64,000 nt of DNA from Candidatus Latescibacterota bacterium (GTDB taxonomy: Bacteria; Latescibacterota; UBA2968; GCA-2709665), in assembly GCA_963662665.2 (NCBI GenBank), contig CAXXJS010000021.1, positions 1-64,000 on the forward strand, written 5' to 3'. Position numbers and translations under genes: made by a program. Below the pieces are notes generated by a model. That model was not told the DNA's origin. It worked only from the letters and a program-made list of their open reading frames with translations, and ran no database searches. Positions within the stretch are counted from its first letter, which is position 1. Each line of letters opens with the position of its first letter. This document shows positions 32,613 through 59,075 of this stretch, piece by piece.

Positions 32613-32616
32613 TCGG

Positions 32617-39123: not shown

Positions 39124-40133
39124 TGCGTGCGGCAGAACAACTGGCCCCAAAGGTCGGGTTGGCGGGGGCGTGTCGGGCGTTGGGTGTGGCGCGTGCTTCG
39201 GTCTACCGTGCGCGTAAACCATCGCGATCGGGTCCTCGTAGCGCGCGCCCCTCGTCGCCACGTGCGCTTTCCCAAACCGAGCGCGCTGCCGTGCTGGACA
39301 TCCTGCACGAGGATCGCTTCGCAGACCGGGCCCCAGCGGCAGTCTACGCCACGTTGCTGGAGGAAGGACGGTATGTCTGCTCGATCCGCACGATGTATCG
39401 GGTACTGCACGACGCAGGGGAGGTGCGCCAGCGGCGACACCAGCGGCGTCATCCACGTCTCGAACCACCCCGGTTGATGGCCAGTGCGCCCAACCAGGTC
39501 TGGACGTGGGATATCACCAGGCTGCCAGGACCCCGCAAGTGGGTGACCTTTCCCCTCTACGTCGTACTGGATCTGTTCTCCCGCTATGTCGTGGCCTGGA
39601 TGGTCGCCGCAAGGGAGAGCGCCACAAACGCAAAGCGGCTTATTGCCAACGCGTGCCAGAAGCAGGGCATTCAACCCGGACAGCTGACGCTGCACCAGGA
39701 CCGTGGCGCACCGATGACGGCCAAGACGTTTTCGCAGTTGCTGATGGATCTCGACATCCTGGCCAGCTACTCTCGACCCCGCGTTTCCGATGACAACCCG
39801 TATTCTGAAAGCCAGTTCAAGACGCTCAAATACACCCCATCATACCCCGAGCGCTTCACCGATCCGCAAGAAGCGCGCACCTATTTGCAGGCCTTCTTTC
39901 ACTGGTACAACACAAAACACCGTCACAGCGGCCTGGGATTGCACACCCCCGACACCGTCCACTATGGGCTGACACAGCAGATTCAGGCCGTCAGACAAAC
40001 GGTGCTGGACCAGGCTTATCATAAACACCCTGAACGATTTGTTAAGGGGCATCCTCGTCCGCCAAGCGTTCCGGACGAAGTGTGGATAAACCAACCCGCG
40101 AATACCATCGAATGCCATCAGTTACTTCACTAA
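39120..40133 (+). CDS. IS3-family transposase OrfB (rve, DDE)
   Basis: WTWDIT, LHQDRG, DNPYSESQFKTLK, YN..H.HSGL. Confidence 0.92.
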   Translation: MMRAAEQLAPKVGLAGACRALGVARASVYRARKPSRSGPRSARPSSPRALSQTERAAVLDILHEDRFADRAPAAVYATLLEEGRYVCSIRTMYRVLHDAGEVRQRRHQRRHPRLEPPRLMASAPNQVWTWDITRLPGPRKWVTFPLYVVLDLFSRYVVAWMVAARESATNAKRLIANACQKQGIQPGQLTLHQDRGAPMTAKTFSQLLMDLDILASYSRPRVSDDNPYSESQFKTLKYTPSYPERFTDPQEARTYLQAFFHWYNTKHRHSGLGLHTPDTVHYGLTQQIQAVRQTVLDQAYHKHPERFVKGHPRPPSVPDEVWINQPANTIECHQLLH

Positions 40134-40394: not shown

Positions 40395-43300
40395 ATGCCC
40401 ATTAAGGGTGGACCCGCAAATAAGCTCGGCAACCGCTACGAAACGTGGTGGACGGTCTCGCAGTTGGTTCGAATGCTCCGAGGCGACACGGATGAAATCC
40501 GTATTGAGGATCCCAGGATCGACAAGGCGGAGTTTGTCGTTAAAGCCGGGTCCTATCGAGAATTCCATCAGGTGAAACGCACCCATCCAAGCGGTAAATG
40601 GAGTCTCGCTGCTCTCTGCAATGACGGGCTTCTTCAGGCCATCGGCGAGCAGTTGGCGGGTAACGACGATCGGTTCGTTTTCGCATCGGGCAGCGACGCT
40701 CGGGAGCTATCCGAGTTGTGCGAGGCGGCGAGCAGCGCGGAGTCAGTGGAGGAGTTCACGCGGTCTTTTCTTGTGGCCAAGAAACGAAAGAAACGGTTCG
40801 AGAGGCTGCTTGGCTGTTGGAAGTCTGACGTACCAGCCGCGGTTGACCAACTGCGACGGATCGACGTTCACACGATTGACGAGCGTGAACTGGTAGAAAA
40901 GGTGCAATGTGGCGTGCAGGCGCTCTTTCTCGCAAATCCGAACCGCGTGGTGGAGAAGCTCCGGGGAATCGCTGAAGATTCGGTGCACCGCACGTTGAGG
41001 CGTCGACCGCTAGTCGACGAACTTGCCCAACACGGATATCAGCTGCGACGCCTGCGTAGCCCCGAGCATGCGGGCGATGCCGTAGAAGCGGCGACGAATC
41101 GGTACGTGGACGGTGCACGAAGCAGGCTAATTCAGAAAAAGCTCGTCCCGAGGACAGCTGCGGAAACGCTGCTTTCGCGACTGGAGGGAAAGGCGACCGA
41201 CTGCGTCATGACCGGCAGGGCAGGCACCGGGAAAACGTCCTGTGTCGTTCAGATCACAGAGTGCCTCCACGAGCGGGGAATTCCCGTGTTGGCGTTCCGG
41301 CTGGACAGGGTCCCTTCAGCATCTACAACTACGGAACTTGGAAGTTTCCTTGACCTCGAAGAGTCGCCAGTTTTTGTACTCGCGGCCGCAGCAGAAGCCG
41401 CAGGACGTCCGGGCGTCCTGATCGTCGATCAATTGGACGCGGTGAGCACCCTGTCAGGTAGGAAGTCCGAGGCATTTGGTCTCGTCGAGCGGCTGCTTCG
41501 CGAAGCCCGGGGGACACGACAGCGAGCGAACGTACATACCGTCGTCGTCTGCCGGGCGTTCGACTGGAAGAACGACTCGCGATTGCGAAAGCTTATGCCG
41601 GATTCACACGCCCAGGTAGACGTCATCGAGTTTATGGTCGAGGAGGTCAAGACAATTTTGGGGGATGCCGGGTTTGATTCGGAGTTGTTCCAGAAGCGCC
41701 AGTTGGAGCTACTGAGGCTTCCGCAGAACCTCTCTCTTTTTCTCGATGCCGATATTGACGCTTCGCAGGCGCCCACGTTCGGCACTGCCACAAAGCTCTT
41801 CGACCTGTACTGGGACACCAAGCGACAAGTCGTAGTAGAGCAAGTCGAGAGGGATCTGTGGATGAAAGTCATGAAGACCCTCTGCAATGAGATGACCGTC
41901 ACCCAGCAACTTGCGGTAGCCAGGGAGAAGCTGGACGAAATCCAGCCCGATTATTTGCGCTGCCTTGCGTCGGAAGGCGTACTTAGCTTCGACGGGCGCC
42001 GGTACGGATTCGGCCACGAAAGTTTTTTCGACTACTGCTTTGCGCGACTGTTTTTCAGTCGATCTGAATCGATGGTCTCGTTCCTCAAGGGGTCGGAGCA
42101 ACACCTATTCCGCCGCGCTCAGGTCCGTCAGGCACTTGCCTATCTCCGTGACGCTGACTTCCCCCGTTATATACAAGAGGTCAATTGCCTGCTCTCGGAC
42201 GAGGGAATCCGGCCGCATATCAAGGATCTTACGTTCGCGCTTCTCGCCGAAGTTGCGGATCCGACCGAAGAAGAGTGGGCGATCTGGAAGCGGTGGAGGG
42301 CCCCGGCGCTCAAGGCCATTGAGCAAGGAACGCCAAACACGGACAAGCTGTCTGAAATCGCATGGCGGCGCTTCAATGGGTCATCGTCGTGGTTTGGGTT
42401 CGCCGGGACGCAGGAGCTGATCAAGCAATGGCTGGCCTCCGGCAACGACCGCATAGTGAATGAGGCTGTAGGTTACCTGAGGATAAATCAACGGCAGTCG
42501 CCCGATATCGTCATGGCCCTTCTCGAACCATACGCTGACCGCGGCGATGATTGGCCCCGGCGGCTTTGCCATATAATGAATTTCGCCGATTTCGGCGTGA
42601 GCCGTCGATTTTTCGATTTCTGTCTGCTTCTGGTTGAAAACGGGGTGCTGCACGATCCCCATAAGCCCGACGCCCTGGAGGGTACATTCCGGCGCATGTT
42701 GTACACTCTTGCTGAGAGCAGGCCTCAATGGGTTCCGGAGTTTCTGGCAAAGAGGCTTCAGAGACGATTTTCGGTTATCATGGAAACAGGCGAGGACTTG
42801 CGCCAAGCGAAGCTTCTTGGGTACAGCAACTCCATTGCCGAGATATTCGACAAGGCTGCGTCCCGAGCACCCGCCGAATACGTGCAGCATTTGCTTCCGG
42901 TTATTCTTCAGATATCAGATTCTGCGTTGATTGGCGATAGATCGCCGAGGCCCGATGCAGTTTGGCCGATTCTGACGCGGTCGGAGCGACCCGATGGCGA
43001 GGAAGCATGCCTCGCGGCGTTGGTCAAGGCACTTGCCGCTCTCGCACGCGAGGGTAACACGGATCTGTCCAATGTGGTCGCGGACTTGCGCCGCCGCGAT
43101 ACGCACATCGCGAACCACCTTCTTCTGGCATTGTACAGGGGAGGGGCCGATCGTTGCGCGGACGAGGCGGTTGCGCTGCTGTGTGAGGAGCCGTGGCGCT
43201 TCGAGTGTGGGTTCTACGATAACCCGAATTGGTGCGCGATGGAGGCGATTCGGGCGGTGGTGTCGCACTGCTCGCCCGAAATATGTAATAGACTTGAAAC

Positions 43301-44912
43301 GGTGTTAATGCGCTACGCCAATTCTTATGAACGAACCGGATGCGGATACAAAGAAAATGGGCGATCCCGTTTTGCGCTGCTGTCCGCGATCCCATCGGAG
43401 TTGCGCAGTCCTCGGGCAGATTTGCATTTCGATGAACTGAAGCGGAAGTTCGGTGAACCGGAAGGCAAGCCGCGCAAAATCACGGGAGGCTTTGTCTCGT
43501 CACCGATTGAAAGCGCCGCTACGAAAAAAATGACAGATGACCAGTGGCTTCGCGCGATTGCGAAATACAGCACGAATCGAACTGACTACTCGGGCGACCG
43601 AATAAAGGGCGGTGCGCCAGAGTTGGCGCGAATTCTGGAAGAGCGGGTCAAAGAGGAGCCGATTCGATTCGCGCGCCTTAGCCTCAGGTTCCATGCCGAT
43701 GCCAATCCGGTGTATCTTGATCGGATATTGGCCGCGTTGAGGGAATCCACTGTAGACAGCGCACTCATTCTTCAGGTCTGTTACAAGGCCTTCCAGGAAT
43801 CACCTGGGCACTGCGGCAAGTCGATCGCGGACGTCCTCGGAAGCTTAGAGGAGGCACCCCCGGACCGAGCCGTTCAAATGCTGCACGACCTGGCAACGGA
43901 ACACGACGATCCCGCAAGAGAATTGTGGCGTAGGGAAGTCGGCAATAGCGAACCCTTTTACGGTGGTGATATCTATATGAACGGAATAAACACCACGCGG
44001 GGGCGAGCGGCCAATGCCATTCGTGACCTCATTCTCGAAGACGCGGCGTACGTCGACCGTTTTCAGCACACTTTGGCAACGATGATTCGGGACCCTAGCC
44101 CAGCGGTGCTGTCATGTGTAGGCGCCGCGGTCGAAACCGTCGCATTTGTTGACATATCGCTCGGAGTGTCGCTTTTCCGGCGCATGAATCTCTCCGAAGA
44201 CCGGCTGCTTGCAACAAGATTTGTCTACCGCTTAATTCACCGTGGATTGCGCGCCTACCTATCCGAAATGCTGCCAATCATTAGTCGCATGCTCCGGTCA
44301 TCCGAACCCGATGTACTGGAGTCTGGCGCACGACTCGCAAGCATCGCCGCCCTGATACACGAGAATTCCAAGGATGTTGCGGACCTTGCAAATGAAGCCT
44401 TTCGCGGACCCGCCAAGTGTCGTCTCGGTGTGGCGCAGGTCGCGTACGCAAATATCGCTGTACCTGAGTACCGAACCTGGGCCGAAGAACGGCTATGTTT
44501 ATTGTTCAATGACGACGATATTGAAGTACGGCGTATCGCTGCGTCATGCTTCGACAAACTGCGCAATGAGTCCCTCCAATCATACGAAGGATTAATCACG
44601 TCATTCTGCGACAGCAAGGCATTTCACGACGAGTCGACTTACCTGGTCGAAACGATGGAGGAATCAACTGGGCGCCTTCCGGGAATCACTTGTGTGGTTT
44701 GTGAGCGATTCCTGGACCGCTTCGCAGACGAAGCACGAGACATCAGGACCAGTCGTTCAGCCGACGCACATGGTATCGGGAAGCTCATCTTCCGTACGTA
44801 CCAGCAACACCAGCAGGGCGAATGGGCGTCGCGTGCATTGGACTTGATCGACCGGCTCTGTCTGGAAGGGGTGGGCGACATTGGAAGTAAGTTTGAGGAG
44901 TTTGAGCGGTAG
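40395..44912 (+). CDS. Avs-like STAND/NACHT ATPase with N-terminal restriction-like nuclease and C-terminal helical sensor region
   Basis: GNRYE...IRIED...AEF...HQVK nuclease pattern; GRAGTGKT; LIVDQLD; FGHESFFDY; long helical C-terminus. Confidence 0.78.
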   Translation: MPIKGGPANKLGNRYETWWTVSQLVRMLRGDTDEIRIEDPRIDKAEFVVKAGSYREFHQVKRTHPSGKWSLAALCNDGLLQAIGEQLAGNDDRFVFASGSDARELSELCEAASSAESVEEFTRSFLVAKKRKKRFERLLGCWKSDVPAAVDQLRRIDVHTIDERELVEKVQCGVQALFLANPNRVVEKLRGIAEDSVHRTLRRRPLVDELAQHGYQLRRLRSPEHAGDAVEAATNRYVDGARSRLIQKKLVPRTAAETLLSRLEGKATDCVMTGRAGTGKTSCVVQITECLHERGIPVLAFRLDRVPSASTTTELGSFLDLEESPVFVLAAAAEAAGRPGVLIVDQLDAVSTLSGRKSEAFGLVERLLREARGTRQRANVHTVVVCRAFDWKNDSRLRKLMPDSHAQVDVIEFMVEEVKTILGDAGFDSELFQKRQLELLRLPQNLSLFLDADIDASQAPTFGTATKLFDLYWDTKRQVVVEQVERDLWMKVMKTLCNEMTVTQQLAVAREKLDEIQPDYLRCLASEGVLSFDGRRYGFGHESFFDYCFARLFFSRSESMVSFLKGSEQHLFRRAQVRQALAYLRDADFPRYIQEVNCLLSDEGIRPHIKDLTFALLAEVADPTEEEWAIWKRWRAPALKAIEQGTPNTDKLSEIAWRRFNGSSSWFGFAGTQELIKQWLASGNDRIVNEAVGYLRINQRQSPDIVMALLEPYADRGDDWPRRLCHIMNFADFGVSRRFFDFCLLLVENGVLHDPHKPDALEGTFRRMLYTLAESRPQWVPEFLAKRLQRRFSVIMETGEDLRQAKLLGYSNSIAEIFDKAASRAPAEYVQHLLPVILQISDSALIGDRSPRPDAVWPILTRSERPDGEEACLAALVKALAALAREGNTDLSNVVADLRRRDTHIANHLLLALYRGGADRCADEAVALLCEEPWRFECGFYDNPNWCAMEAIRAVVSHCSPEICNRLETVLMRYANSYERTGCGYKENGRSRFALLSAIPSELRSPRADLHFDELKRKFGEPEGKPRKITGGFVSSPIESAATKKMTDDQWLRAIAKYSTNRTDYSGDRIKGGAPELARILEERVKEEPIRFARLSLRFHADANPVYLDRILAALRESTVDSALILQVCYKAFQESPGHCGKSIADVLGSLEEAPPDRAVQMLHDLATEHDDPARELWRREVGNSEPFYGGDIYMNGINTTRGRAANAIRDLILEDAAYVDRFQHTLATMIRDPSPAVLSCVGAAVETVAFVDISLGVSLFRRMNLSEDRLLATRFVYRLIHRGLRAYLSEMLPIISRMLRSSEPDVLESGARLASIAALIHENSKDVADLANEAFRGPAKCRLGVAQVAYANIAVPEYRTWAEERLCLLFNDDDIEVRRIAASCFDKLRNESLQSYEGLITSFCDSKAFHDESTYLVETMEESTGRLPGITCVVCERFLDRFADEARDIRTSRSADAHGIGKLIFRTYQQHQQGEWASRALDLIDRLCLEGVGDIGSKFEEFER

Positions 44913-44965: not shown

Positions 44966-46708
44966 ATGCTGACCAAACTAACCATCCGCAACTTTAAGCG
45001 CTTCGGTGAAGTGGAGATCGAATTGGGGAGCCCGGTGGTCTTCATCGGACCCAACAACTCGGGCAAAACCTCGGCGATGCAGGCGCTGGCGCTCTGGGAC
45101 ATCGGTCTCAATCGCTGGAACGAAAAACGGTCGGGAAAGACCGCACCCGAAAAACGACCTGGTGTGACGATCAACCGGCGCGACCTTGTTGCCATCCCGA
45201 TTCCGGAGGCAAACCTTCTCTGGCGCGATCTCCACGTGCGTGACGTTCGGTCAGTCGATGGAAAGCAACGTACCAGCAATATTCGTATTGACATCACAGT
45301 GGAGGGAGTTACGGAGGACCGGCACTGGAAATGCGGACTCGAGTACGACTACGCAAACGACGAGTCATTCTACTGCCGACCGCTTCGCCTGTCGGAAAGC
45401 AAGACTCCGGACCACATGCCCCTTCCGCTCGAAGCTGGAAGCACACGAATCGCATTCCTGTCGCCAATGTCGGGCATGGACGCGACAGAGACACGTCTCG
45501 ACGAAGGGGCCGTAAATGTACGGATTGGCGAGGGGCGTACAGCTGACGTCCTGCGCAACCTGTGCTTCCGGGTTTATCAGGATAAGCCGTCACAGTGGGA
45601 TGATCTTGTCAGTCAGATCCAGATGCTGTTTGGATCCCGGCTCGATCCTCCGCGTTACATCACCAAGCGCGGTGAGATCGCGATGACCTACACCGAAGAG
45701 AGTGTCCGTCTTGACCTGTCGTCATCCGGACAAGGTCTGCAACAGACACTGCTCCTTTTGGCGTATATGTACGCGAATCCCGGTTCGGTTGTGCTCCTGG
45801 AGGAGCCGGACGCGCATTTAGAGATTCTCCGCCAACGCCAGATCTGCGGGCTGCTCACCGCCGTCGCGAGAGAAAGTGGCAGTCAGGTCATTGCCGCCAG
45901 CCACTCCGAAGTGCTGCTCAATGAGGTCGCGGGTCGGGAAGTGGTCATCTCGTTCGATGAAGGGCCGCATCCGATTGACGACAACGGAAGCCAGGTTCAG
46001 AAGGCGCTCAATGGAATCAGTTTCGACCAGTACTATCTGGCCCAACAAACCGGCTGGGTACTCTACCTGAAGAGCTCGACGGACCTGGCGATACTGCAGG
46101 CATTCGCAAAGCGACTTAATCATGAACGCGCGATAAAGACGCTTGAACGGCCCTTTGTGCATTACGTAGGAAACCGTCCGCCCGCGGTTCGTCGCCACTT
46201 CGATGGATTGAGGGAGGCCTACCCAGCTATTTGCGGCATTGCGTTATTTGACCGATTGGATTCAGGAATTGGTGACATCTCCCCGGTCGTATGCCTGAGT
46301 TGGGAACGTCACGAGATTGAGAACTATCTATCTTCGCGGTCGACACTCTTGGCGTTCGCCGAAGCGTCGAGCATGGACGACGTGCCTGCACCCCTGTTTG
46401 CGGCGGCTGAAAGACAGAGGCGTGTTAACGCGATGGACGCGGCAATTGACGAAATCGAGTCGGCACTCAAGGCGCTGGGCAAGCCCTCGCCGTGGAGCCC
46501 GGACATTAAGGCGAGCGATGAATTCCTGGATCCGTTATTCGCTTCCTATTTCAAACGACTTGATCTGCCGAATCTGATGGCAAAGAAGAACTTCCATGAA
46601 CTCGTTGACTGCGTCCCCGATAGCGAAATTGATCCCGAAATCCGGATCAAACTCGACGCAATTGCGGATGTCGCGGACAGTGCGGTTCCTGCAGGAGATG
46701 GAACGTGA
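44966..46708 (+). CDS. ABC ATPase-TOPRIM (OLD-like) protein with degenerate motifs
   Basis: GPNNSGKT, SGQG, LLEEPDAHL, ASHS; TOPRIM-like YLKSSTD, LFDRLD, EIENY. Confidence 0.8.
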   Translation: MLTKLTIRNFKRFGEVEIELGSPVVFIGPNNSGKTSAMQALALWDIGLNRWNEKRSGKTAPEKRPGVTINRRDLVAIPIPEANLLWRDLHVRDVRSVDGKQRTSNIRIDITVEGVTEDRHWKCGLEYDYANDESFYCRPLRLSESKTPDHMPLPLEAGSTRIAFLSPMSGMDATETRLDEGAVNVRIGEGRTADVLRNLCFRVYQDKPSQWDDLVSQIQMLFGSRLDPPRYITKRGEIAMTYTEESVRLDLSSSGQGLQQTLLLLAYMYANPGSVVLLEEPDAHLEILRQRQICGLLTAVARESGSQVIAASHSEVLLNEVAGREVVISFDEGPHPIDDNGSQVQKALNGISFDQYYLAQQTGWVLYLKSSTDLAILQAFAKRLNHERAIKTLERPFVHYVGNRPPAVRRHFDGLREAYPAICGIALFDRLDSGIGDISPVVCLSWERHEIENYLSSRSTLLAFAEASSMDDVPAPLFAAAERQRRVNAMDAAIDEIESALKALGKPSPWSPDIKASDEFLDPLFASYFKRLDLPNLMAKKNFHELVDCVPDSEIDPEIRIKLDAIADVADSAVPAGDGT

Positions 46709-46960: not shown

Positions 46961-49900
46961 ATGTCGGATTCAAAACTTCCGTCGATTTGTGAGAATCTTG
47001 ATTACTCCAGGCAGAGTTATTCTGTGGCTGTTCTCCTCGCTACGTCCCATCGGACATATCTGCTGAAGAGCCGAGCTCTTCCATCGATCCAGCACCAGTC
47101 CCTTCCCCCAGAGCGGGTGATCATCGTCGATGACTCGGGCGATGAGGCCGCCGCCGAACGAACCGAACTGCTAGTCCGGCAATGGCAACCTGCCGGAGTG
47201 GATGTCAACTTTCTACGCAATCGGCGTACGAATGGGGCCGCAGGGGCGTGGAACTCAGGTTTAGATCACCTGCTGCGGACATGCGGTGACCCAGAACAAC
47301 AGTACGTCGCAATCTTGGACGACGATGATCAGTGGAATCCCCACCATTTACGCACATGTCTGGCAGCCGCCGAGGCACGAAGCCTTGACATGGTCGCGGC
47401 TCCGTTTCTTCGGGTGGAAGAGCAAGCCAAGGCCCTTTTGACGTCTCCGCCGAAATCACTTGATGTGTCTGACTTCCTGGTCGGTAATCCCGGTATCCAA
47501 GGCAGCAATCTCGTTTGTCGGTTGAGTGTGCTGCTTGAAGCAGGTCTGTTCGACGAATCGCTGCCGAGTTGTACGGACCGCGACCTGTGCATCAGAATCG
47601 CGGAGTTGCCCGGCGTTCGGTACGGTACCACTAGTGAACCGACTGTTCATCACTTTGCGTGCGAGTCGAGGCCGCGATTATCAACACGAGGGTCGCAGAA
47701 TAAAGTCAAGGGGCTGGATCGATTCTTCCGCAAGTACAAGGGGCGTATGTCTAACGCCGAGAGATTAGGGTTTTGCGGCCGCGCAGAACATCTGTTCGGA
47801 TGGAAGGAATCGCCGCCAGCACCCACAGCTGAAGATTGTTTCCACGGCGGCCAACTGTCATCAATTTCTCGAACACTGGCACCGCGTCAGGCGCCGCCCC
47901 ACTTGATCGTGGGGCTGATCGCCGACATTGCGAGGCTCAAAGAGTTAGGCAATCTGCTCGCCGATCTTCGCGGGTTGGCAGACGCACCTGACTTGTCGGG
48001 CTACGACGTCCTAATCTTGGAGAACGGTGACGATAGCACGCCCAGCGGTGAACTGCGAACACTCATCGAGCACGAGCGCCGCGGCGGTCTGCGTATCCAT
48101 CTTGTTGACCGTTCGCGGCATTTGCAAGATGCGACGAGCGGACTGGTTCTGGACGGCGGCGTGAGTAAGGAGTCTAGGTTGTCAATTGCCCATGCGCGGA
48201 CGGTATTACAGACGTACCTGTACGCCTTCTCCAAGAGACGGCCAGGTGCCGTGGTATGGATCGTCGATGACGATATGCGGCTCGACCCGCTGGTTGTTGA
48301 AAAAAATGGAAGCCTACAGCGGCGAGTCAATAAGATCGCTCCGATGCTCCAAGAGCTTCGCCGACTCCGTGCCGGTGGGATCGTCGATATTGCCATCGGG
48401 GCGTACACTGGAGCTGCGCCGTTGCCGTCTTTCGCAACTGTACGTGTCCAGCTCGTCGATTTGATCGCGTCGCTGTGGTGGCTGGCGTCCCAGAAACCTA
48501 CGGACTCCCTTCCAGACCGCGGGATAGAGAACGCCAAGTGGCGGTCCGGCCGACGCGACTACTATTACGATCTGTCGCGTAATGAGACCGATCGATTGGA
48601 AGCCCCGTTCTGGATCACGCCCGCGTTTCTTGGTGAGGATGTTGGTTCGGCGTTCGTCCGCGTAGCTGGCATTGCGGAGCGGATCCTTGCCGGCGAGCAG
48701 ATCTTCCGTCCACTCGCATTGGAGGCCAGTCTCAACCCTCTCAATTCGATCGGTGATGGGCTACAGCGCGGCGGCAATACTTTGGTGTTCGATGTCGAAT
48801 CTCTGAAACTGGCCCCCAATCCATCACCGATAATCGACGGGCGGTCGAGCCGCCGTGCTGACATGATTTGGACGTTGCTGCAGAAACGCTACTTCAGCCG
48901 TCAGGTCGTCACCTTGCCGCTCGGCCTATTTCACGACAGATCACATGTCGTCGCCGAATTGGATGTCGACGACATCGTCGACGACATACGTGGCTATGCG
49001 TTGTTCTCAGCGCTTGAGGACATTCCTGGGGTATTCAAGATCACCACGGATGACCGGGGCATTCGTTTGTCCGAGGAAATGGTTGAGTGTTTCGCTCAGC
49101 GCGTCCACAAATACTTAGAAGAGCGGCTGGCCGCAATTCGCCTTTCTTTCTACCGGATCCGCGGTTTGACCCGCGTCTTAAGGCGGCAAATGTACGACCC
49201 AGAAAAATGGTGGCAGGGAGATGAATATCGAGTTGCCGCAAAACTGCTTCGGACGTTTTCCGAACGCTTGGCCGATTTCTACAAAATGGAGACTCTGAAT
49301 CGCATTAGACGCGAAGCCGAGGAACTGGATGCCCCCCGTATCGGCAAGTTTCTTGATCATCTGCCGATCGAAATTGAGAGCCATAGAAGGCGGCTTTCGG
49401 ACTTCTCGGCTCTGATAAACAGTCTTGAGGGCGAAAGGATCGCCAACGCCAAGACCATTGCCATGCGACTGGCTGTTCCCACCCGTGCGCTTAAGGTATT
49501 AGGATGCGGCATTGAGGGAGTAGCTCTCACCGACGGCACAAGGGTATTCAAAGTCTTCGATTACTGGTGGAAGCGTTCTCACAACCTCTCAGCCCCTGCG
49601 TTCCTGCGCTCGCTTGTCGGTGCTTGGAAGGACGCGAGCTGTCTCTATCCGCTTCTTGATTTCCTCGAGTCGGGACATCAGAAGGTGCTGACGTATACTT
49701 ATGAAGTCAGCGAACCGTACAAGGGCGGTCACGGGCCCGCCATGGTCAATCTGGTCGCCGAATGTCGCCAGCATGGTATCGTCTGTCGAAACATCGATCC
49801 AGATAACTTGCGTTTAGCCAATGGACGGATTCGGCTGATCGACTACGGTTCGGACATCCACCCTTTCGATGAAGATGAGTTCCATACGATGTGCCAACGC

Positions 49901-52258
49901 GCCTGGCTATCATATCGCTGGGCTAACCGTTCGAACTTAAAAAACATCATGCGCGAGGCGCTGACGGACGAGCGAATACCTGAACTCGATGGTTTTGATC
50001 GGTTCTACGAGGCAATTCGAATGGTTACAGGTCAGCATGAAACGCGGAAGGATGTTGTGCTGAACTTTGTTGGGAAGGCCGAGCGCGTTCTCGACTACGG
50101 TTGTGGCAAGGGACGGCTTGCCCGAGAAATTTCGGACCGGGGAGTGGATGTATTTGCCTACGATCCTGAAGTAACATACAGGTCGCGCTGGGAGTCACTC
50201 AGTCGGGAAAGCGAAAGCTTACGATTTACGGACGATCTAAATGACGCGTTGGCGGCGGGGCCATTTGATCTTGTTGTTTGCCGTCGTGTGCTATGCACCA
50301 TTGAAGACAACAGTGAATTTAGAACGATTCTCAGCGATCTGCGAAATCTAGTCAGCGAGAGCGGTCGGGTATTGGTGACTGTTTGTGACCCGAATTTTAC
50401 GTTCGGTGCTTCGACACCTGAGGCTGAGCGCGAACTACCGCCTGATGCCAGTTACGAAAGCGTCTTCACGTGGCTCAAGAGGGTGCGCGAAACGGGCCGG
50501 ATGCGCGTAGAGGTGCATCGACCCGAACGGATACTGCGACGCGAATTTGCTCTGGCAGGTCTGGCGGTGTGTAGCCGTGTGGAGGTGCCTACGGTCGATC
50601 TGGAGCGATTCGAACCAGCGTCGGACCGGTTAGTGTTTGAACTCAGCCCGATGGAGCCACTGCCAGCCGAGGTCACTCTAATAATCAAGGCATGTGCCAT
50701 GGAAGCTGCTACTTTGGATGTTCAGGTTCGCCACCTTGTTTCACAACTGGAGACCTCTAGGGCTTTTGCAGACCGAATTCTGGTAATCGATTCCCGAGAA
50801 GATGAATTCCTTAGGCAACACACGTTTGGGAACTTGGGCGACTTGTACAATGCGGCGCGTCGTTTAGAGGAAGCAGGATGGATCGACCGGATCGTTGACG
50901 GACCGAATGACGGCGATGACACGGCATTGCTACACAAGCGGTGGTTCGGAATTCCCTGTCGTACGGCTCATTCCTGCAGCGGCGCTCAGATCGCCTCGAC
51001 GCTTAACGGGTTCGATGCTTGTGCCACACGGTACGTCCTCCAACTGGATGCCGACGTCATGATCGGCCGGCTGGATCGTAGTCACGATTATCTCGCCGAA
51101 ATGCTTGCAGTCTTGCAGCGCGATCCTGAAGCGGTCACGGCATCTTTCAACATAGCGATGGATCATGATCGGCCCTATACCGAAGCGGGAGACAGAGGGC
51201 CGTGGCGTGTGGAGGTGCGTGCAGGAATGATTGATCTCAAACGTCTTTTCGAAGCGCGGCCACTACCGAACCGGCTCATTGGAGAACGTCTGAAATTTCA
51301 CTGGTACCGGGCCCTTGATCGGCAGATCGCGCAGGGTAGAGGTCGTTCATATCGCGGCGGCGATCGCCGGACCTTCTTCGTGCACCCCCCCAATGTTCGC
51401 AAGCGCAAAATTACGGAGTGGTTCGCAATACTCGACCGCATCGAACATGGTGTGGTCCCGTGCGTTCAATATGGAAAGGTGGATTGGGTCGGCGACAAGG
51501 CAAGCTGGATGGGACCGCCTCGGTTAGAACCGTTCGTTTTTGTGGTATCGGGTCGCAACGTGCAGTCGGGGCGGTTTCGTCGTTGCATCGAGTCAATGGC
51601 TCGGCAGAAAGGAGCACAATGGGGCGCCGTCGTTTTTGACGACGCATCCGACCCGATGTTCTCCGAACACTTTGAGATCGCTTGCAGGCCGCTCGTAGAG
51701 CGTTGCACGGTCATTCGTAACCGCCGTCGCTGTGGATTGCTCCTCAACATGGTGACTGCAATTCGGGAGGTATGTGCCGATCCCGAATCGGTCATCATTA
51801 CGCTGGATTCTGACGATGCCCTGATAGGTGATCGCGTTCTGGAACGACTTGCAGCAGAGTACGATCGGGGAGCCGACGTGACAGTTGGCACAATGCTGCG
51901 GACCGACAAGGACGCCAATTATCCTGTATGTTTCGATCAGCCGCGGCGACACCGCGGAGGAAACGTCTGGCAGCACCTTCGGTCGTTCAAGAAACGGCTT
52001 TTCGATGCGATTCCTGACGATGCACTTCGACTTGATGGAGACTATATCGATCTCGCCAACGACTGGGCGTACATGCTACCGATTGTGGAGATAGCAGACC
52101 TGCCAGTACATATCGCTGAACCACTTTATCTTTACGAACCTTCGGGGATTTGGAAAGGGGCAGATCGAACACTTCGCGAGGAAGTTATCGCACGCATCGT
52201 CGCGAAAGACACGCTGTACCAAGACGAGACGTGCGATACGTACAGCGAAAAAATCTAA
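46961..52258 (+). CDS. Giant multidomain protein: GT2 - GT-A-like - kinase-like - class I SAM methyltransferase - GT-A-like - GT2
   Basis: IVDDS/GAWN/LDDDD/DRD; ILENG/IVDDD; GCGIEG-VFK-RNIDPDN-IDYG; VLDYGCGKG/FDLV; QLDAD; FDDAS/LDSDD/DWAY. Confidence 0.85.
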   Translation: MSDSKLPSICENLDYSRQSYSVAVLLATSHRTYLLKSRALPSIQHQSLPPERVIIVDDSGDEAAAERTELLVRQWQPAGVDVNFLRNRRTNGAAGAWNSGLDHLLRTCGDPEQQYVAILDDDDQWNPHHLRTCLAAAEARSLDMVAAPFLRVEEQAKALLTSPPKSLDVSDFLVGNPGIQGSNLVCRLSVLLEAGLFDESLPSCTDRDLCIRIAELPGVRYGTTSEPTVHHFACESRPRLSTRGSQNKVKGLDRFFRKYKGRMSNAERLGFCGRAEHLFGWKESPPAPTAEDCFHGGQLSSISRTLAPRQAPPHLIVGLIADIARLKELGNLLADLRGLADAPDLSGYDVLILENGDDSTPSGELRTLIEHERRGGLRIHLVDRSRHLQDATSGLVLDGGVSKESRLSIAHARTVLQTYLYAFSKRRPGAVVWIVDDDMRLDPLVVEKNGSLQRRVNKIAPMLQELRRLRAGGIVDIAIGAYTGAAPLPSFATVRVQLVDLIASLWWLASQKPTDSLPDRGIENAKWRSGRRDYYYDLSRNETDRLEAPFWITPAFLGEDVGSAFVRVAGIAERILAGEQIFRPLALEASLNPLNSIGDGLQRGGNTLVFDVESLKLAPNPSPIIDGRSSRRADMIWTLLQKRYFSRQVVTLPLGLFHDRSHVVAELDVDDIVDDIRGYALFSALEDIPGVFKITTDDRGIRLSEEMVECFAQRVHKYLEERLAAIRLSFYRIRGLTRVLRRQMYDPEKWWQGDEYRVAAKLLRTFSERLADFYKMETLNRIRREAEELDAPRIGKFLDHLPIEIESHRRRLSDFSALINSLEGERIANAKTIAMRLAVPTRALKVLGCGIEGVALTDGTRVFKVFDYWWKRSHNLSAPAFLRSLVGAWKDASCLYPLLDFLESGHQKVLTYTYEVSEPYKGGHGPAMVNLVAECRQHGIVCRNIDPDNLRLANGRIRLIDYGSDIHPFDEDEFHTMCQRAWLSYRWANRSNLKNIMREALTDERIPELDGFDRFYEAIRMVTGQHETRKDVVLNFVGKAERVLDYGCGKGRLAREISDRGVDVFAYDPEVTYRSRWESLSRESESLRFTDDLNDALAAGPFDLVVCRRVLCTIEDNSEFRTILSDLRNLVSESGRVLVTVCDPNFTFGASTPEAERELPPDASYESVFTWLKRVRETGRMRVEVHRPERILRREFALAGLAVCSRVEVPTVDLERFEPASDRLVFELSPMEPLPAEVTLIIKACAMEAATLDVQVRHLVSQLETSRAFADRILVIDSREDEFLRQHTFGNLGDLYNAARRLEEAGWIDRIVDGPNDGDDTALLHKRWFGIPCRTAHSCSGAQIASTLNGFDACATRYVLQLDADVMIGRLDRSHDYLAEMLAVLQRDPEAVTASFNIAMDHDRPYTEAGDRGPWRVEVRAGMIDLKRLFEARPLPNRLIGERLKFHWYRALDRQIAQGRGRSYRGGDRRTFFVHPPNVRKRKITEWFAILDRIEHGVVPCVQYGKVDWVGDKASWMGPPRLEPFVFVVSGRNVQSGRFRRCIESMARQKGAQWGAVVFDDASDPMFSEHFEIACRPLVERCTVIRNRRRCGLLLNMVTAIREVCADPESVIITLDSDDALIGDRVLERLAAEYDRGADVTVGTMLRTDKDANYPVCFDQPRRHRGGNVWQHLRSFKKRLFDAIPDDALRLDGDYIDLANDWAYMLPIVEIADLPVHIAEPLYLYEPSGIWKGADRTLREEVIARIVAKDTLYQDETCDTYSEKI

Positions 52259-54663: not shown

Positions 54664-55938
54664 ATGACTCGTCTTCGCTTTGTACATGCCGCTGATTTGC
54701 ATCTCGATAGCCCATTTGTCGGCATAAAGGCCGTCGCTCCCGACAATGTGTCTGGCGCGTTGCGCGATGCGACGTTCAGCGCCTACGAGAACATCGTCAA
54801 CCTGTGCATCGAAGAACGTGTAGACGCGTTGCTGGTCGCTGGGGACGTTTACGACGCTGCCGACCGGAGCCTGCGCGCGCAGCTCAAGTTCGTCGATGGC
54901 CTGAAACGGCTGGACGAGGCCGGCATACGGTCTTTCGTGTGCCACGGCAACCACGATCCGCTCAACGGATGGGAAGCTCAGCTGGAATACCCCAAAGGAT
55001 GTACGCGCTTCGGCGAGGAGGCGCAGGCCGTACCGGTTCTTGAAGACGATCCCGAACGCGCGGTCGTTCACGGAATCAGCTATCCGAAACAGAAGGTCAA
55101 CGAGAACCTCGCACTTCGTCTCGGCGCGGCAGATTCCAGCATGTTCTCGATTGGTCTGGTGCATGCCAATGTAGACAGCGACACGAAACACGTGAACTAC
55201 GCGCCCTGCTCGCTCGACGATCTTGAACGGTCTGGTATAGACTACTGGGCGCTCGGACACGTGCATACCAGGCAGGTACTCAGAGAACGGACCCCTACCG
55301 TCGTCTATCCGGGCAACCCGCAGGGCAGGCATCCGAATGAACCGGGCGCGCGCGGCGTGTATCTCGTCGAGGTGGATGAGGGTAACGACGTCCACCTAAA
55401 CTTCAGGACCGTGGATACGGTACGGTGGGCACAGGCCGACCTGGATGTCTCCCGAACAGACTCGGTACCGGAGTTGATTGAAGGACTCCACCAGCGCATC
55501 CAGGATTCTCTGGCCGAATCGGACGGCCGATCGGTCGTGCTGAGGATCAGTCTGTCAGGGCGGGGCGGTGTACACCGTTCGCTGCAGCAGCCGACGTTCA
55601 TTGAGGAGTTGATGGGCGAGTTAAATCGGGAATGGGCGGAGCGTTCACCGTTCGCGTGGTGTGAGCGCATCGTGGACGAGACGGCTGCGCCGTTCAACCG
55701 CGAGGATCGCATTGCAGGATCGGACTTCCTTGCCGAGGTACTTAAGACCGTGGATCTTGCGAAGGACGAAGGCGAGTTGCAAAACCGTCTTCGCAAAGGG
55801 CTTGCCGACCTTTATGAGCACCGCCGCTATCGCAGTCACCTGTTGGACCACGCTCCCGGTGATGACGACCTTGTCCTGCTGATCGACGAGGCTGAGACAA
55901 TTGTCGTAGACCTGCTTTCAGGGGATGAGGACGCATGA
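54664..55938 (+). CDS. yhaO: SbcD/Mre11-like metallophosphoesterase (YhaO family)
   Basis: ADLHLD, AGDVYD, GNHD, YWALGHVH, YPGNPQGR. Confidence 0.88.
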   Translation: MTRLRFVHAADLHLDSPFVGIKAVAPDNVSGALRDATFSAYENIVNLCIEERVDALLVAGDVYDAADRSLRAQLKFVDGLKRLDEAGIRSFVCHGNHDPLNGWEAQLEYPKGCTRFGEEAQAVPVLEDDPERAVVHGISYPKQKVNENLALRLGAADSSMFSIGLVHANVDSDTKHVNYAPCSLDDLERSGIDYWALGHVHTRQVLRERTPTVVYPGNPQGRHPNEPGARGVYLVEVDEGNDVHLNFRTVDTVRWAQADLDVSRTDSVPELIEGLHQRIQDSLAESDGRSVVLRISLSGRGGVHRSLQQPTFIEELMGELNREWAERSPFAWCERIVDETAAPFNREDRIAGSDFLAEVLKTVDLAKDEGELQNRLRKGLADLYEHRRYRSHLLDHAPGDDDLVLLIDEAETIVVDLLSGDEDA

Positions 55939-58900
55939 AGATCCGGGACATTCGCATCGACGGGTTCGGCCGGTTTTCGGACGCCCAATTCGGGCCGCTG
56001 GAGCGATCCTTAACCGTTTTCGTCGGCCCGAACGAGGCGGGCAAGAGTACCCTGCTGGAATTCGTCCGCAGGATACTTTTCGGATTTCCCCGCAAGAGCG
56101 GACGGGTAAACCCCTACCCGGCGTTGGGCGGGGGGCGGTACGGAGGTCGCGTTGCTATCGAGGGTTCTGACGGTCGAATGTGCGACTTACACAGAACGAC
56201 GGGGGGAAGTTTCAGGGGTGACGTGGTCCTGACTTCTGCATCCGGACAGCCCCTCCCGGAAAACGAACTTACGGCACTTCTGGGGAATCACTCGAGGGAC
56301 GTCTTCGAACAGGTGTTCGCATTCACGCTCGAAGACCTCTACAGCGACGAACTGTTAAACGACGAAAATGTCAATAGCCAGATATACAGTGCGGGCATGG
56401 GTGTGACCTTGCTCCCTGGCGCCGTCAGGTCGATCGAGTCAGGCCGCACAGACATCTTTCTGAAGGGAGGTAGCAGCCAGAAGGTCTATGAAGTCCGCGG
56501 TAGAATCGAGGAATTGGACGAAACGCTGCGAAGCGTCCGGGACAACGCGGCGAGATATGGGGAACTGACCGACCGCCGCCGGCAGATCGAGGATGAGCTT
56601 AGAAACCTCGCGGTGCGGCGACAAGAGATTCAGTCTCGGTATAACCATCAGGTCATGCTTCAGAATGCCTGGGGGAGCTGGATCGACCTGAATTCCGCCG
56701 AGGAAGATTTGGCTGAACTACCGGCCATTGACGATTTTCCTGCGGATGGATTGAATCGCCTGGAAGCATTACAAGAGCGCTTGAGCGCCGCTCGGAGGGA
56801 GTACGAGTCCGACGAACATCGGGTGTCGAAGGCCGAACGAGCAGCGGACGTCAGGATAGAGCATGAGGCTATTCTGACAAATTCGGCCGAAGTCCGTCGT
56901 CTGCAAAACGGCCGTACCGCGTTCGACGGGTCTGTAAGAGACCTTCCGGAACGCGAGACCGAGCTTGAAGGCCACACAAGAACGCTCGCCGACACCCTGA
57001 AAAACCTGGGGCCGGACTGGGACGAATGCCGGTTGGAAGGGTTCGATTTCTCTATAGCAGTCCGCCAGCAGATCTCTGAACACGGCGACCGATTGCGCAG
57101 CGCATCCGCCGGACTCACGGATGTCAAATCGGCGTTGGGCCAGGATACAGCGGCGTTAGAGGAAGCCAAGGACGCGGAGAGCAACGCCGGACGAAGACTC
57201 GAGGCCGCAGATAAACCACGCCTCAATCCAGACCGGATACGACAACACCGCCACCTTGTTCGGGCAACCAGGTCGCAGCTTGATGAAATCAGCCGACAGC
57301 GACAAAACGTGCTGAATCTCAAGAATCAGCTCAAGGGCGTGGAGGGCGCGGCGCAAGCGGAGGGCGCACGTGCCGGCAGCAGAACCGTCGCAGCCATCAG
57401 CTTCGTTATTGGACTCGCGCTTCTTATCGCAGGTGCGGCTCTGGGAGGCATGGCTTCCATCATCGGCGCGGCGGCCGGAATTGCGTTGGCAGGCTTAGGC
57501 ATTTACCTGTTCATGTCCGAAAATTTCCGACCGGTACTCGCAGGGAAATCCCCTCTTGCCCAACCGATTCGCGAGTCCATTCGCGACGCCGAAAGGGACA
57601 TAGATGATCGCCGGTCAAAGATGAAGCAGGATGCAGCCCCCCTTAACCTTAATGTGATCGATGAATCGTCACTCCTTTCAGCCGAACAGACGATCGACGA
57701 AGAGGAGGAATTGCTGAACGAGCGAACGCGCCTCACCGAAACGCTCGAGGACGCTAAGGAACTTGCAAAGCAGCGACAGATCCGCACTGACAGAACTGCC
57801 ATTGCCGTCACGGAAGCAAAGGGTCGACTCAACGCAGCACGGCTCGAATGGCGGAAGTGGGCAATGTCTCGCGGCCTGTCTGATACCTTTACGCCTGAGA
57901 CGGCCGACGTGCTGCAAGGGCAGGTCGAACTCGGTCGGAGCCGGCTCGAAGACGTGAGGAGTTGGCAGCAGCGCATCGAGGCCATCCAGAAAGACATCGA
58001 CGAATACATCGACGCTGTTGAGCCGCTTGCGGCCGCGTTCGACGTCCCGTTTGATCGAAACGACTCACGCGTCGTAGCTGCTGCCGCCGACAGGCTGGTG
58101 GAGTTATTGGAAGAGGTACAGGAAGACGTCCGGAAGCGGACCGACACGGAGGCTGAACTGGAAGACGCCAGGCGACAATTGAAAGACCGTAAGGGCGATC
58201 TACGAAAGGCAGAGGAGGAGCTTGAACAATTGCTCCATTCGGGCGGCGCCGAGGACGTGGAAACGTTCCGCGTGCGGGCAGATCTTTTCGACCGGCGGGC
58301 GAGACTGGATGACAATGCCCGCGCCGCGCACGACAGGCTTCGCCGCCTCAGCGGGACCGGCGAACTACTGGAATCGTTGAAATCGGACCTTCAAGAGACG
58401 AATCCTGAGTCCATCGCAGACGAGTTAGCCACACTCGAGCATGAGCGGGATTCTACCGACGCTCAACGTGAAATGCGTTCGGCCGAACAGGGCGAAATCC
58501 GTAAGGGGCTGGATGGGCTCGTCGGTGAAGAAGAGTCATCGCGGCTGCGGATGGAACGGAACGTGCTCCTGGAGCAACTCAGGGGCCACGCACGTGATTG
58601 GACCCGGCTTACGATCGCCCGGAACCTGCTCGCCGAAGCGCGCCGAAGGTTTGAGCGCGAGCGGCAGCCCGGCGTTATCCGTCACGCTGAGCGCTTCTTC
58701 GCTGCGATCACCGATGGACGGTACCGGCAGGTTTATGCTCCCCTTGGTGAACAGACGATTACGGTGACGGACGCCGACGGGCAGACGAAGCAGCCGTCGG
58801 AACTGAGCCGGGGTACGCGGGAGCAACTGTTCTTGTCGCTCCGTTTCGGGCTGATCCGCGAACTGGGGGAGCGGACGGAGCCGCTCCCCGTCGTCGTGGA

Positions 58901-59075
58901 CGAAATCCTGGTCAACTTCGATCCCGATCGCGCCCTTCGAGCCGCCGTTGCCTTCACGGAGTTGTCCAAAACCAACCAGGTCCTGGTCTTTACCTGCCAT
59001 CCGACGGTCGTCGAACTGTTCCGGAATGCGGCATCCGAGGCGGACGTCAATGAACCGCAGGTCATTGAAATATAG
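55935..59075 (+). CDS. yhaN: SbcC/Rad50-like coiled-coil ATPase with central transmembrane hairpin (YhaN family)
   Basis: GPNEAGKST, long coiled coils, two hydrophobic helices mid-protein, LSRGTREQL, VDEILVNFD, FTCH; ATGA overlap with yhaO. Confidence 0.88.
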   Translation: MKIRDIRIDGFGRFSDAQFGPLERSLTVFVGPNEAGKSTLLEFVRRILFGFPRKSGRVNPYPALGGGRYGGRVAIEGSDGRMCDLHRTTGGSFRGDVVLTSASGQPLPENELTALLGNHSRDVFEQVFAFTLEDLYSDELLNDENVNSQIYSAGMGVTLLPGAVRSIESGRTDIFLKGGSSQKVYEVRGRIEELDETLRSVRDNAARYGELTDRRRQIEDELRNLAVRRQEIQSRYNHQVMLQNAWGSWIDLNSAEEDLAELPAIDDFPADGLNRLEALQERLSAARREYESDEHRVSKAERAADVRIEHEAILTNSAEVRRLQNGRTAFDGSVRDLPERETELEGHTRTLADTLKNLGPDWDECRLEGFDFSIAVRQQISEHGDRLRSASAGLTDVKSALGQDTAALEEAKDAESNAGRRLEAADKPRLNPDRIRQHRHLVRATRSQLDEISRQRQNVLNLKNQLKGVEGAAQAEGARAGSRTVAAISFVIGLALLIAGAALGGMASIIGAAAGIALAGLGIYLFMSENFRPVLAGKSPLAQPIRESIRDAERDIDDRRSKMKQDAAPLNLNVIDESSLLSAEQTIDEEEELLNERTRLTETLEDAKELAKQRQIRTDRTAIAVTEAKGRLNAARLEWRKWAMSRGLSDTFTPETADVLQGQVELGRSRLEDVRSWQQRIEAIQKDIDEYIDAVEPLAAAFDVPFDRNDSRVVAAAADRLVELLEEVQEDVRKRTDTEAELEDARRQLKDRKGDLRKAEEELEQLLHSGGAEDVETFRVRADLFDRRARLDDNARAAHDRLRRLSGTGELLESLKSDLQETNPESIADELATLEHERDSTDAQREMRSAEQGEIRKGLDGLVGEEESSRLRMERNVLLEQLRGHARDWTRLTIARNLLAEARRRFERERQPGVIRHAERFFAAITDGRYRQVYAPLGEQTITVTDADGQTKQPSELSRGTREQLFLSLRFGLIRELGERTEPLPVVVDEILVNFDPDRALRAAVAFTELSKTNQVLVFTCHPTVVELFRNAASEADVNEPQVIEI

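Follow-up and report, generated by a model that had tools for sequence, protein, structure and literature searches.

The window analysed here is a 64,000-nucleotide stretch of DNA from Candidatus Latescibacterota bacterium (GenBank assembly GCA_963662665.2, contig CAXXJS010000021.1), and its subject is one large gene, P0001, at 46961..52258 on the forward strand. The gene is a single reading frame of 1765 residues with no internal stops. From the N terminus, the encoded protein comprises two glycosyltransferase-like domains (D1 and D2), a linker (H), a protein-kinase-like domain (K), a methyltransferase (M), and two further glycosyltransferase-like domains (D5 and D6). We propose, with a probability of roughly 0.4, that P0001 is a cytoplasmic enzyme that makes a glycosylated and tailored small molecule derived from a nucleobase or nucleotide, and not a surface polymer. 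The domain borders were set by motifs and by the points where natural relatives are split, as follows.

46961..52258 (+): P0001, whole open reading frame of 1765 residues, D1-D2-H-K-M-D5-D6 (reading-frame calling and Pfam)
47003..47845 (+): D1, residues 15-295, GT2/GT-A glycosyltransferase with DDDD at residues 120-123 (PF00535 and PDB profile matches)
47873..49060 (+): D2, residues 305-700, the family-defining domain, with a GT-A-like N-terminal half (hhalign against D1 and conservation)
49058..49465 (+): H, residues 700-835, poorly conserved linker (conservation in 97 sequences)
49466..50005 (+): K, residues 836-1015, protein-kinase-like, with Asn944 in the place of the catalytic Asp (PDB profile matches)
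50006..50635 (+): M, residues 1016-1225, class I S-adenosylmethionine (SAM)-dependent methyltransferase (Pfam and PDB profile matches)
50636..51445 (+): D5, residues 1226-1495, probable divergent GT2-like domain with D1363/D1365 (weak PF00535 match and conservation)
51446..52210 (+): D6, residues 1496-1750, GT2-like, with D1616/D1618/D1619 (hhalign against D1 and conservation)

Pfam recognizes PF00535 (GT2) in P0001 with 90.2 bits against a cut-off of 23.3, in two stretches of which the best spans residues 38-151, and class I methyltransferase models at residues 1039-1160. Beyond these, no Pfam match rises above noise, and the NCBIfam matches, to assorted glycosyltransferases and methyltransferases, all stay below threshold. 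The sole match in PADLOC-DB 2.0.0 is to mad2 (7.7e-8) and covers the methyltransferase region (1021-1229); no model in that database matched any other part of the protein. No transmembrane segment is predicted, the highest 19-residue Kyte-Doolittle mean being 1.39, in agreement with the initial annotation of this gene, and P0001 is thus likely to be soluble and cytoplasmic. To count motif conservation, relatives were clustered at ≤50% identity and aligned in depth. Conservation across these relatives extends to the four DxD motifs, to the residues with which K would bind ATP, and to the SAM motif of M, and by this measure the domains look active. Each of the motifs that the initial annotation had pointed out does lie at its position in the intact frame and is conserved. 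A scan for promoters and terminators around the gene found sites no more frequently than in shuffled sequence, and no tRNA genes were found in the window.

The four glycosyltransferase-like domains differ in how closely they resemble known enzymes. In D1, residues D120-D123 (around 47318) are kept in 111-113 of 114 relatives. A profile built from a mixed D2 alignment that took in D1, so that its matches describe D1 and not D2, finds the GT-A enzymes 6p61 (1e-11), chondroitin synthase (2z86/2z87), PglI (9jma), and TarP (6h1j) in the PDB. By these matches D1 is a standard GT-A/GT2 domain. D6 appears to be related to it, with an hhalign probability of 97.5% (E 5e-12) against D1, and its residues D1616, D1618, and D1619 (around 51806) are present in 55 of 55 relatives; a 17-sequence profile of D6 matched nothing in the PDB at E ≤ 0.001.

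D2 carries an aspartate pair (around 48266) in which D436 is present in 135 of 135 relatives and D438 in 133 of 135. Among 69 diverse members, no meaningful Pfam family match was found at E ≤ 0.1, and three D2 profiles returned no significant solved relative from the PDB. Matches to phosphodiesterase-4 at the start of D2 (E 0.005-0.4) were taken as chance. With deep local alignments, hhalign pairs D2 with D1 over 127 columns (probability 76%, E 2e-5). The match covers about the first 170 residues of D2, including D436-x-D438, and the nucleotide-binding half of D1. This single local profile-profile match ties D2 weakly to GT-A, and D2, found in neither Pfam nor the PDB, may represent a new glycosyltransferase domain family if the proposed reading holds. 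It also occurs as a lone protein of about 470 residues at three related loci (L073, L087, and L088).

D5 retains D1363 and D1365 (around 51048) in 59 of 59 relatives and matches PF00535 weakly in 9 of 31 diverse members (best E 9e-5), so it is probably GT2-like. Its profile found no match in the PDB, and hhalign gives only 1.4% against D1. When D2 and D5 were each compared with D6, and with one another, in shallow hhalign runs, the probabilities were ≤1%. Of the four GT-A/GT2-like domains of the initial annotation, D1 has solved GT-A relatives and D6 is tied to D1, but D2 and D5 are only weakly linked to GT-A.

The linker H is conserved in ≥90% of 97 sequences at just three positions and is absent from some family forms. 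The K domain that follows resembles protein kinases. Its profile matches MRCK (5.5e-6) and CK2alpha (1.3e-6) in the PDB, with the loop aligned to HRD...N and DFG, and Pkinase is matched weakly in 13 of 55 members. Across relatives, the glycine loop (around 49502) is kept at G848 (100 of 106) and G850 (104 of 106), with an invariant glutamate inside it; K864 is kept in 104 of 106, the metal-binding N949 in 100-106 of 106, and, in D961-x-G963, the two residues in 104 and 106 of 106. The position of the HRD aspartate, fixed by the MRCK and CK2alpha alignment, is occupied by Asn944, and the 106 relatives have Asn in 104 cases and Asp in 2. The kinase-like domain described initially is thus borne out in its glycine loop, lysine, and DxG motif, but the RNIDPDN loop holds Asn944 where the catalytic Asp should be. 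The exchange makes ordinary phosphotransfer doubtful. K is best described as a putative ATP-binding kinase-fold domain for which ordinary phosphotransfer is unlikely. Kinase-fold enzymes without this aspartate include the AMP-transferring pseudokinases, which serve here only as a lead.

The M domain matches PF13489 (1.1e-12, 48.4 bits against a cut-off of 27) as well as PF08241 and PF13649. Its SAM motif, D1045/G1047/G1049 (around 50093), and D1068, the acidic residue after strand 2, are kept in 85-87 of 87 relatives. The best PDB match of its profile is 3e8s (7e-10), followed by UbiG and TehB, and the methyltransferase WbdD comes in about 14th place (4e-6). By these profile matches, M is a generic class I methyltransferase.

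P0001 belongs to a large family. A full-length search found 417 relatives among the scored candidates, and the best 120 share 50-94% identity over about 98% of the length and are annotated, if at all, merely as 'glycosyltransferase'. An exhaustive search with residues 300-1020 returned 673 clusters (50% identity) at E ≤ 1e-3, 228 of them at E ≤ 1e-30. The constant core is D1-D2. Around it, the family takes the forms D1-D2(-H) of about 780 residues, D1-K-D2-H of about 1100, D1-D2-H-K-M of about 1230, and the full form of 1700-2000, together with lone D2 of about 470 residues and split forms with K-M in an adjoining gene.

Genome records that contain the family are titled Latescibacterota, Gemmatimonadota, Alpha- and Gammaproteobacteria, Poribacteria, and others. 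Identity reaches 87-89% between Latescibacterota- and Gemmatimonadota-titled records, and is 58-70% to most proteobacterial records. Close to home the enzyme is patchily distributed, being present in 5 of 61 related genomes (that of the window included) and in 2 of 14 other members of the genus. The GC content of the window is 0.52-0.59 between 24 and 58 kb and about 0.59-0.65 outside. The patchy spread, the cross-phylum identity, and the low-GC stretch point to an accessory gene that moves horizontally, and on this evidence the family is large and horizontally mobile. In one relative from the same order (L109/L110, G022:C1:4037101-4037986), only D2 fragments in two open frames are left, and this copy has probably decayed.

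The genes beside the enzyme were compared across 103 related loci, 23 from genomes and 80 from metagenomes, by calling reading frames and clustering the neighbours; many of the contigs end within a few genes. Long forms are accompanied in 19 of 48 cases by a SLOG cluster-4 gene (PF18306, E down to 1e-37), usually as the next gene downstream. In L014 and L017 the two genes share 4 bases, and the SLOG gene is sometimes fused to a polysaccharide-deacetylase domain. In the split forms L090 (462-2291) and L094 (3217-5049), a SLOG-K-M fusion adjoins the D1-D2 gene, so that SLOG stands beside a long form or is fused to K and M in 21 of 50 long forms with these two included. Short forms have a different partner, a GTP cyclohydrolase II (GCHII)-NADAR gene located 3' of the enzyme gene in 34 of 53, and in L075 (4974-6599) GCHII-NADAR is fused to K. 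One or the other partner is found at 58 of the 103 loci and both at none. An asparagine-synthase-like amidotransferase and an arylamine-N-acetyltransferase-like gene usually accompany GCHII-NADAR, and each occurs at 27 of 103 loci. Sugar-nucleotide tailoring genes are also found nearby, namely an epimerase/dehydratase at 15 loci and a UDP-glucose dehydrogenase-like gene at 6, with deacetylases and a nucleotidyltransferase at some. The initial description of a stand-alone enzyme fits the P0001 copy but not the family, in view of the nucleotide N-glycosidase-type partners at 58 of the 103 loci. A remnant of a SLOG gene downstream of P0001 was considered and rejected, as tblastn with partner proteins gave nothing better than E 0.009 anywhere in the window.

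Other arrangements were seen at individual loci. A convergent gene of about 200-310 residues without a Pfam match lies directly downstream of long forms at 10 loci (for example L007:7585-8496, L021:15016-15684, and L039:14323-14991) and is absent from the window. In L002, NADAR, DprA-like/LDcluster4, and two YAcAr SLOG domains are joined in one 1424-residue protein (17925-22199, reverse strand), which is four genes from the homolog; a Dsr1-type SIR2 gene lies on the homolog's other side. The disaggregated loci L015 (3794-14068) and L020 (9701-14593) contain a D1-D2 gene followed by sulfotransferase, M20 peptidase-like, PhyH dioxygenase, and N-acetyltransferase-like genes, and L015 additionally has SLOG-deacetylase and epimerase genes.

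Relatives of P0001 are often found among defence and mobile-element genes. PADLOC detects defence-type proteins within three genes of the homolog at 6-7 of 17 genome loci, a ThiF match being ambiguous. These are a restriction-like and ATPase pair, a Dsr1-type SIR2, a Mokosh-type helicase, a type I methylase, PDC-M45B, and an AriA-like ATPase. A scan of outer neighbours in metagenomes, which covered 53 loci and 140 of 167 candidate proteins, found at least 13 of the 53 loci adjoined by unambiguous defence or mobile-element genes, and 8 more that are ambiguous. Among the unambiguous genes are GmrSD_C, RES, BrxL-type, SNF2 with an MmeI-type methylase, Eco57I with ResIII, AAA_21 with RloB, a PLD-helicase, integrases, recombinases, IS110, IstB, and PFIN.

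Seven further loci were fully annotated, and four of them show the same picture. An integrase, a recombination directionality factor, and HsdR flank the homolog in L055; HipA and HicB are found in L053, and DUF3987-type primases in L052. In L073 (531-11374), HsdM, DarT, and a Macro gene run without a break on one strand into a cassette of deacetylase, unknown gene, GTP cyclohydrolase II, NADAR, asparagine-synthase-like gene, N-acetyltransferase-like gene, and lone D2. On a plasmid of Pseudoalteromonas donghaensis HJ51 (L114, NZ_CP032092.1 116683-123205), a four-gene short-form cassette sits just after TraV-TraC, its genes annotated as a GT2 family protein, RibA, an asparagine synthase-related protein, and an arylamine N-acetyltransferase. 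A DGQHR-domain gene and a PRTRC system lie near this cassette, which is the only plasmid match and comes from a cultured organism. Wzx, Wzy, Wzm/Wzt, initiating-transferase, and Wza-type genes were absent from the annotated neighbours of the related loci, so O-antigen and capsule clusters are not the main setting of the homologs; likewise, no polysaccharide export or O-antigen genes are located next to P0001 in the window.

The window itself, annotated with PADLOC and Pfam from about 17 kb onward, confirms that P0001 sits inside a defence island with defence genes on both sides, as the initial annotation had described. The neighbouring features assigned with these tools are listed below.

17758-21366, 25372-28650, and 33346-36666: HmaA, HmaB, and HmaC, respectively, of an Hma-type system
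within 17758-36666: AAA_22 gene, among the defence genes inserted between the Hma parts
23579-25372: OLD/Gabija-like ATPase-Toprim, within the Hma region
29429-30664: PDC-M07A, within the Hma region
31314-33300: HEC-01 pair, within the Hma region
37691-40133 region: 137-residue probable hsdS fragment, next to the IS3-type transposase
38623-40133: IS3-type transposase pair, HTH_Tnp_1 and rve
40395-44912: STAND NTPase of 1505 residues, weak PDC-M54A match
44966-46708 (+): AAA_15/AAA_21 ABC-type ATPase of 580 residues, directly upstream of P0001 (Pfam; PADLOC models AriA, NsnB, and AriAB)
downstream of P0001: HTH gene
54664-59075: SbcCD-like pair, Metallophos and AAA_27, downstream of P0001
59097-62818 (−): ABC exporter pair (Pfam)

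The 137-residue fragment matches type I specificity subunits in their C-terminal part alone and is probably a broken hsdS. The ATPase upstream of P0001 has a long C-terminal extension and is separated from the enzyme gene by 252 bp. It shares 66% identity over its full length with L014:7950-9680, the gene upstream of the L014 homolog, and the other neighbours differ. At three loci (the window, L006, and L014) a gene of this ATPase family is directly upstream of the enzyme, and at 6 of 104 the family is represented in the neighbourhood. The ATPase may travel with the enzyme. A counterpart of the STAND NTPase (1703 residues) occupies the equivalent place in L006, where the Metallophos and AAA_27 pair is also conserved, and in L091 a Metallophos gene lies beside a MORC-like HATPase_c_3 gene close to the homolog.

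What the analysis shows is which domains are present, how their motifs are conserved, how large and mobile the family is, and how its partner genes are distributed; the acceptor, the product, the order of steps, any activity of K, and the biological or antiviral role are inferred. SLOG/LOG-type domains cut the N-glycosidic bond of nucleotides. Fusions of GCHII were reportedly noted by Frelin et al. in 2015. NADAR domains are described in PMC9503650 as ribosyl N-glycosidases that act on intermediates of the riboflavin pathway. The mutually exclusive pairing of SLOG and NADAR with D1-D2, together with their fusions to K, suggests a pathway with a nucleotide as its starting point, in which the transferases act on the freed base or pyrimidine, or on the remainder. 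In most relatives, the nucleotide N-glycosidase partner, SLOG/LOG-like in long forms and GCHII-NADAR in short ones, would supply the acceptor, which may be a free nucleobase, an aminopyrimidine, or a close derivative. D1 and D2 would glycosylate this acceptor from nucleoside diphosphate sugars, and D5 and D6 would extend the product with further sugars. Tailoring would fall to ATP-dependent K and SAM-dependent M in long forms, and to the amidotransferase and N-acetyltransferase in short cassettes, acting on the aminopyrimidine or the sugar. The P0001 copy would have lost its partner, or never had one, and would draw on a cellular pool. The family rides islands, plasmids, and integrative elements among defence genes, and its product could therefore serve as an antimetabolite in conflicts with phages or other elements. 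It is this gene neighbourhood that makes an anti-phage role plausible; the earlier proposals that the enzyme builds and caps a glycan and has an anti-phage function are likewise inference.

A bolder form of the proposal takes the D1-D2 family as a new class of mobile chemical-defence cassettes, in which an N-glycosidase (SLOG or GCHII-NADAR) would free a base or aminopyrimidine, D2, as a previously unrecognized GT-A family, would join it to a sugar, and tailoring by pseudokinase-like K, the methyltransferase, the amidotransferase, and the N-acetyltransferase would complete an antimetabolite of the hexosyl-nucleoside type, active against the replication of phages or plasmids. P0001 would then be the most highly fused version, with the whole pathway in one polypeptide. 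We regard this extension as doubtful.

Several observations weigh against a small molecule derived from a nucleobase or nucleotide. The nearest solved relatives of D1 are polysaccharide or teichoic-acid glycosyltransferases, D2 and D5 appear tied to GT-A only weakly, and K, devoid of the catalytic Asp, may have no phosphorylating activity. A polysaccharide pathway would be just as good an explanation for the neighbouring epimerase, dehydrogenase, and deacetylase genes. The P0001 copy has neither a SLOG nor a NADAR partner gene in the window, its genome contains no NADAR and a single generic LDcluster4 match elsewhere (a model that also matches 13 of 14 control genomes), and 28 of 48 long forms have no partner gene in the available sequence. 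The defence context is uneven too. Ten of the 17 genome loci have no PADLOC match within three genes, several neighbours are plain metabolic genes, and the defence-gene counts are raw numbers without a background rate, which makes 'enriched' a judgement. Finally, a search of 2.9 million viral contigs detected just 3 relatives, and the phage collection yielded none. These numbers led us to reject a phage origin of the enzyme; such scarcity fits a cellular gene and does not show action against phages.

Much of the same context could belong to a conflict enzyme that modifies macromolecules. Here the GT-A domains would glycosylate DNA, RNA, or protein of the host or the invader and K and M would add marks, with a self-marking or toxic effect, and the SLOG and NADAR partners would be erasers or immunity proteins that remove the N-linked group. 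The defence-island and mobile-element setting agrees with this, as do the protein-kinase type of K, the cassette directly after the DarT-Macro pair in L073, and a UDG-superfamily gene directly upstream in L052. PMC9503650 also describes NADAR replacing Macro in DarT-DarG-like systems, with a predicted release of ADP-ribose from macromolecules. However, the DarT and UDG neighbours occur at one locus each, and the core contains no conserved DNA-binding, nuclease, or base-exchange domain. The pairing of NADAR with GCHII, fused or adjacent, in 34 short-form loci and the amidotransferase- and acetyltransferase-like genes form a metabolic-pathway signature and not that of an eraser. We consider modification of a macromolecule unlikely.

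A surface or lipid-linked polysaccharide would be the product if P0001 were a polymerase-terminator, like a fused WbdA/WbdD or WbbB, in which the glycosyltransferases build the chain, K and M cap it, and export genes lie elsewhere. The best solved relatives of D1, enzymes of polysaccharide, teichoic-acid, and N-glycan synthesis, are in keeping with such a function, and the M profile does match the WbdD methyltransferase domain (E 4e-6), but only in about 14th place behind generic methyltransferases. The epimerase, UDP-glucose-dehydrogenase-like, deacetylase, and asparagine-synthase-like neighbours do occur in sugar pathways, and L014 has a MacB/FtsX-type permease three genes downstream; yet no export or initiating genes are annotated among the neighbours of relatives or beside P0001, and the partner genes are nucleotide-centred. 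The protein also gives no indication of a membrane segment, runs from kinase-like domain to methyltransferase in the reverse of the WbdD order, and has Asn for the catalytic Asp in 104 of 106 relatives. With the patchy, island-borne distribution added, this explanation seems quite unlikely.

A cytoplasmic oligo- or polysaccharide or compatible solute, such as a methylated storage or stress glycan, would involve no conflict at all, and the island location would reflect mobility only. A soluble protein with four glycosyltransferase-like domains and a methyltransferase could serve this purpose, some loci have only metabolic neighbours (hydantoinase, glycine-cleavage T, transketolase-like, sulfate permease), and nearby PADLOC matches are lacking at 10 of 17 genome loci. 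This explanation is very unlikely, as it accounts neither for the way in which SLOG and GCHII-NADAR exclude each other as partners and occur fused to K nor for the frequent integrase, restriction, and toxin-antitoxin neighbours. Equally improbable is a two-gene module in which the AAA_15/21 ATPase (44966-46708) senses infection and switches on the enzyme as effector. In its favour, the two genes lie side by side on one strand in the window, L006, and L014, and window and L014 share 66% identity for both ATPase and enzyme though other neighbours differ. However, the ATPase is directly upstream in only these 3 loci, its family is in the neighbourhood of 6 of 104, and the genes are separated by 252 bp in the window and about 350 bp in L014. 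The ATPase is also of a kind common in any defence island, and its match to fused AriA-AriB-type models means that it may be a system complete in itself.

The component parts of P0001, as assigned from sequence, appear to be known folds. The literature searched holds no description of this architecture or cassette, though supplements, which lay outside the search, might list the family as a candidate system. If the nucleobase- or nucleotide-glycoside reading is true, several hundred or more clusters annotated only as 'glycosyltransferase' would encode a self-contained nucleobase- or nucleotide-glycoside pathway carried on islands, plasmids, and integrative elements. It would also add a glycosyltransferase domain family, D2, and a kinase-like domain with a conserved Asp-to-Asn exchange, and would possibly provide the second example, after the viperins, of bacterial nucleoside-type antimetabolites in the mobile defence repertoire. 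The question is directly testable, since compact four-gene versions exist on a plasmid of a cultured Pseudoalteromonas. Should the product instead be an ordinary glycan, a single-gene pathway of 5.3 kb that has spread across phyla is still a clear example of recent horizontal transfer.

Among known systems, the initial annotation likened P0001 to WbdD and WbdA of E. coli O9a, in which a kinase and methyltransferase chain terminator acts with a multi-domain mannosyltransferase. In WbdD the methyltransferase lies at the N terminus, ahead of a kinase, a coiled coil, and a C terminus that binds the membrane. P0001 resembles this pair in joining a protein-kinase-like domain, a class I methyltransferase, and several glycosyltransferase domains, and in the match of M to WbdD mentioned above. 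However, the analogy breaks down in several respects. The order in P0001 is K (836-1015) and then M (1016-1225), with glycosyltransferase domains on both sides, whereas in WbdD the methyltransferase precedes the kinase. The catalytic Asp is replaced by Asn, and no membrane anchor is indicated. The glycosyltransferase domains of P0001 appear to be GT-A/GT2-like and are contained within the same polypeptide. P0001 also lacks the ABC-transporter O-antigen locus, and the partners of its family are nucleotide N-glycosidase-type genes.

The plant pathway to vicine and convicine is closer in chemical logic. According to a preprint (bioRxiv 10.1101/2020.02.26.966523), the proposed route to vicine leads from GTP through GTP cyclohydrolase II, hydrolysis by COG3236, and deamination to glucosylation. 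The short-form cassettes similarly join GCHII-NADAR with glycosyltransferase domains, and would thus make a pyrimidine aglycone from GTP before glycosylating it. The likeness to D1 and D2 is one of chemical logic only. Moreover, the long form P0001 has no GCHII-NADAR, and the bacterial cassettes add asparagine-synthase-like and N-acetyltransferase-like enzymes.

A bacterial precedent for the glycosylation step is cytosylglucuronic acid synthase (BlsD/MilC) of blasticidin S and mildiomycin biosynthesis. According to PMC3715490, cytosylglucuronic acid arises by coupling of free cytosine with UDP-glucuronic acid, that is, a free nucleobase and a UDP-sugar give a hexopyranosyl nucleoside. UDP-glucose-dehydrogenase-like genes beside 6 loci of the D1-D2 family recall this step. 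The comparison concerns chemistry only; BlsD and MilC belong to Streptomyces antibiotic clusters with radical SAM and peptide-tailoring genes, in contrast to a compact mobile cassette.

The prokaryotic viperins are radical SAM enzymes that form anti-phage systems by producing small molecules. They differ from the D1-D2 family, which is not known to give a phage phenotype, in both fold and chemistry, radical SAM in one case and GT-A in the other. The likeness lies in the role: as in the viperins, an antiviral analogue would be formed from a nucleotide by an enzyme encoded in a defence island.

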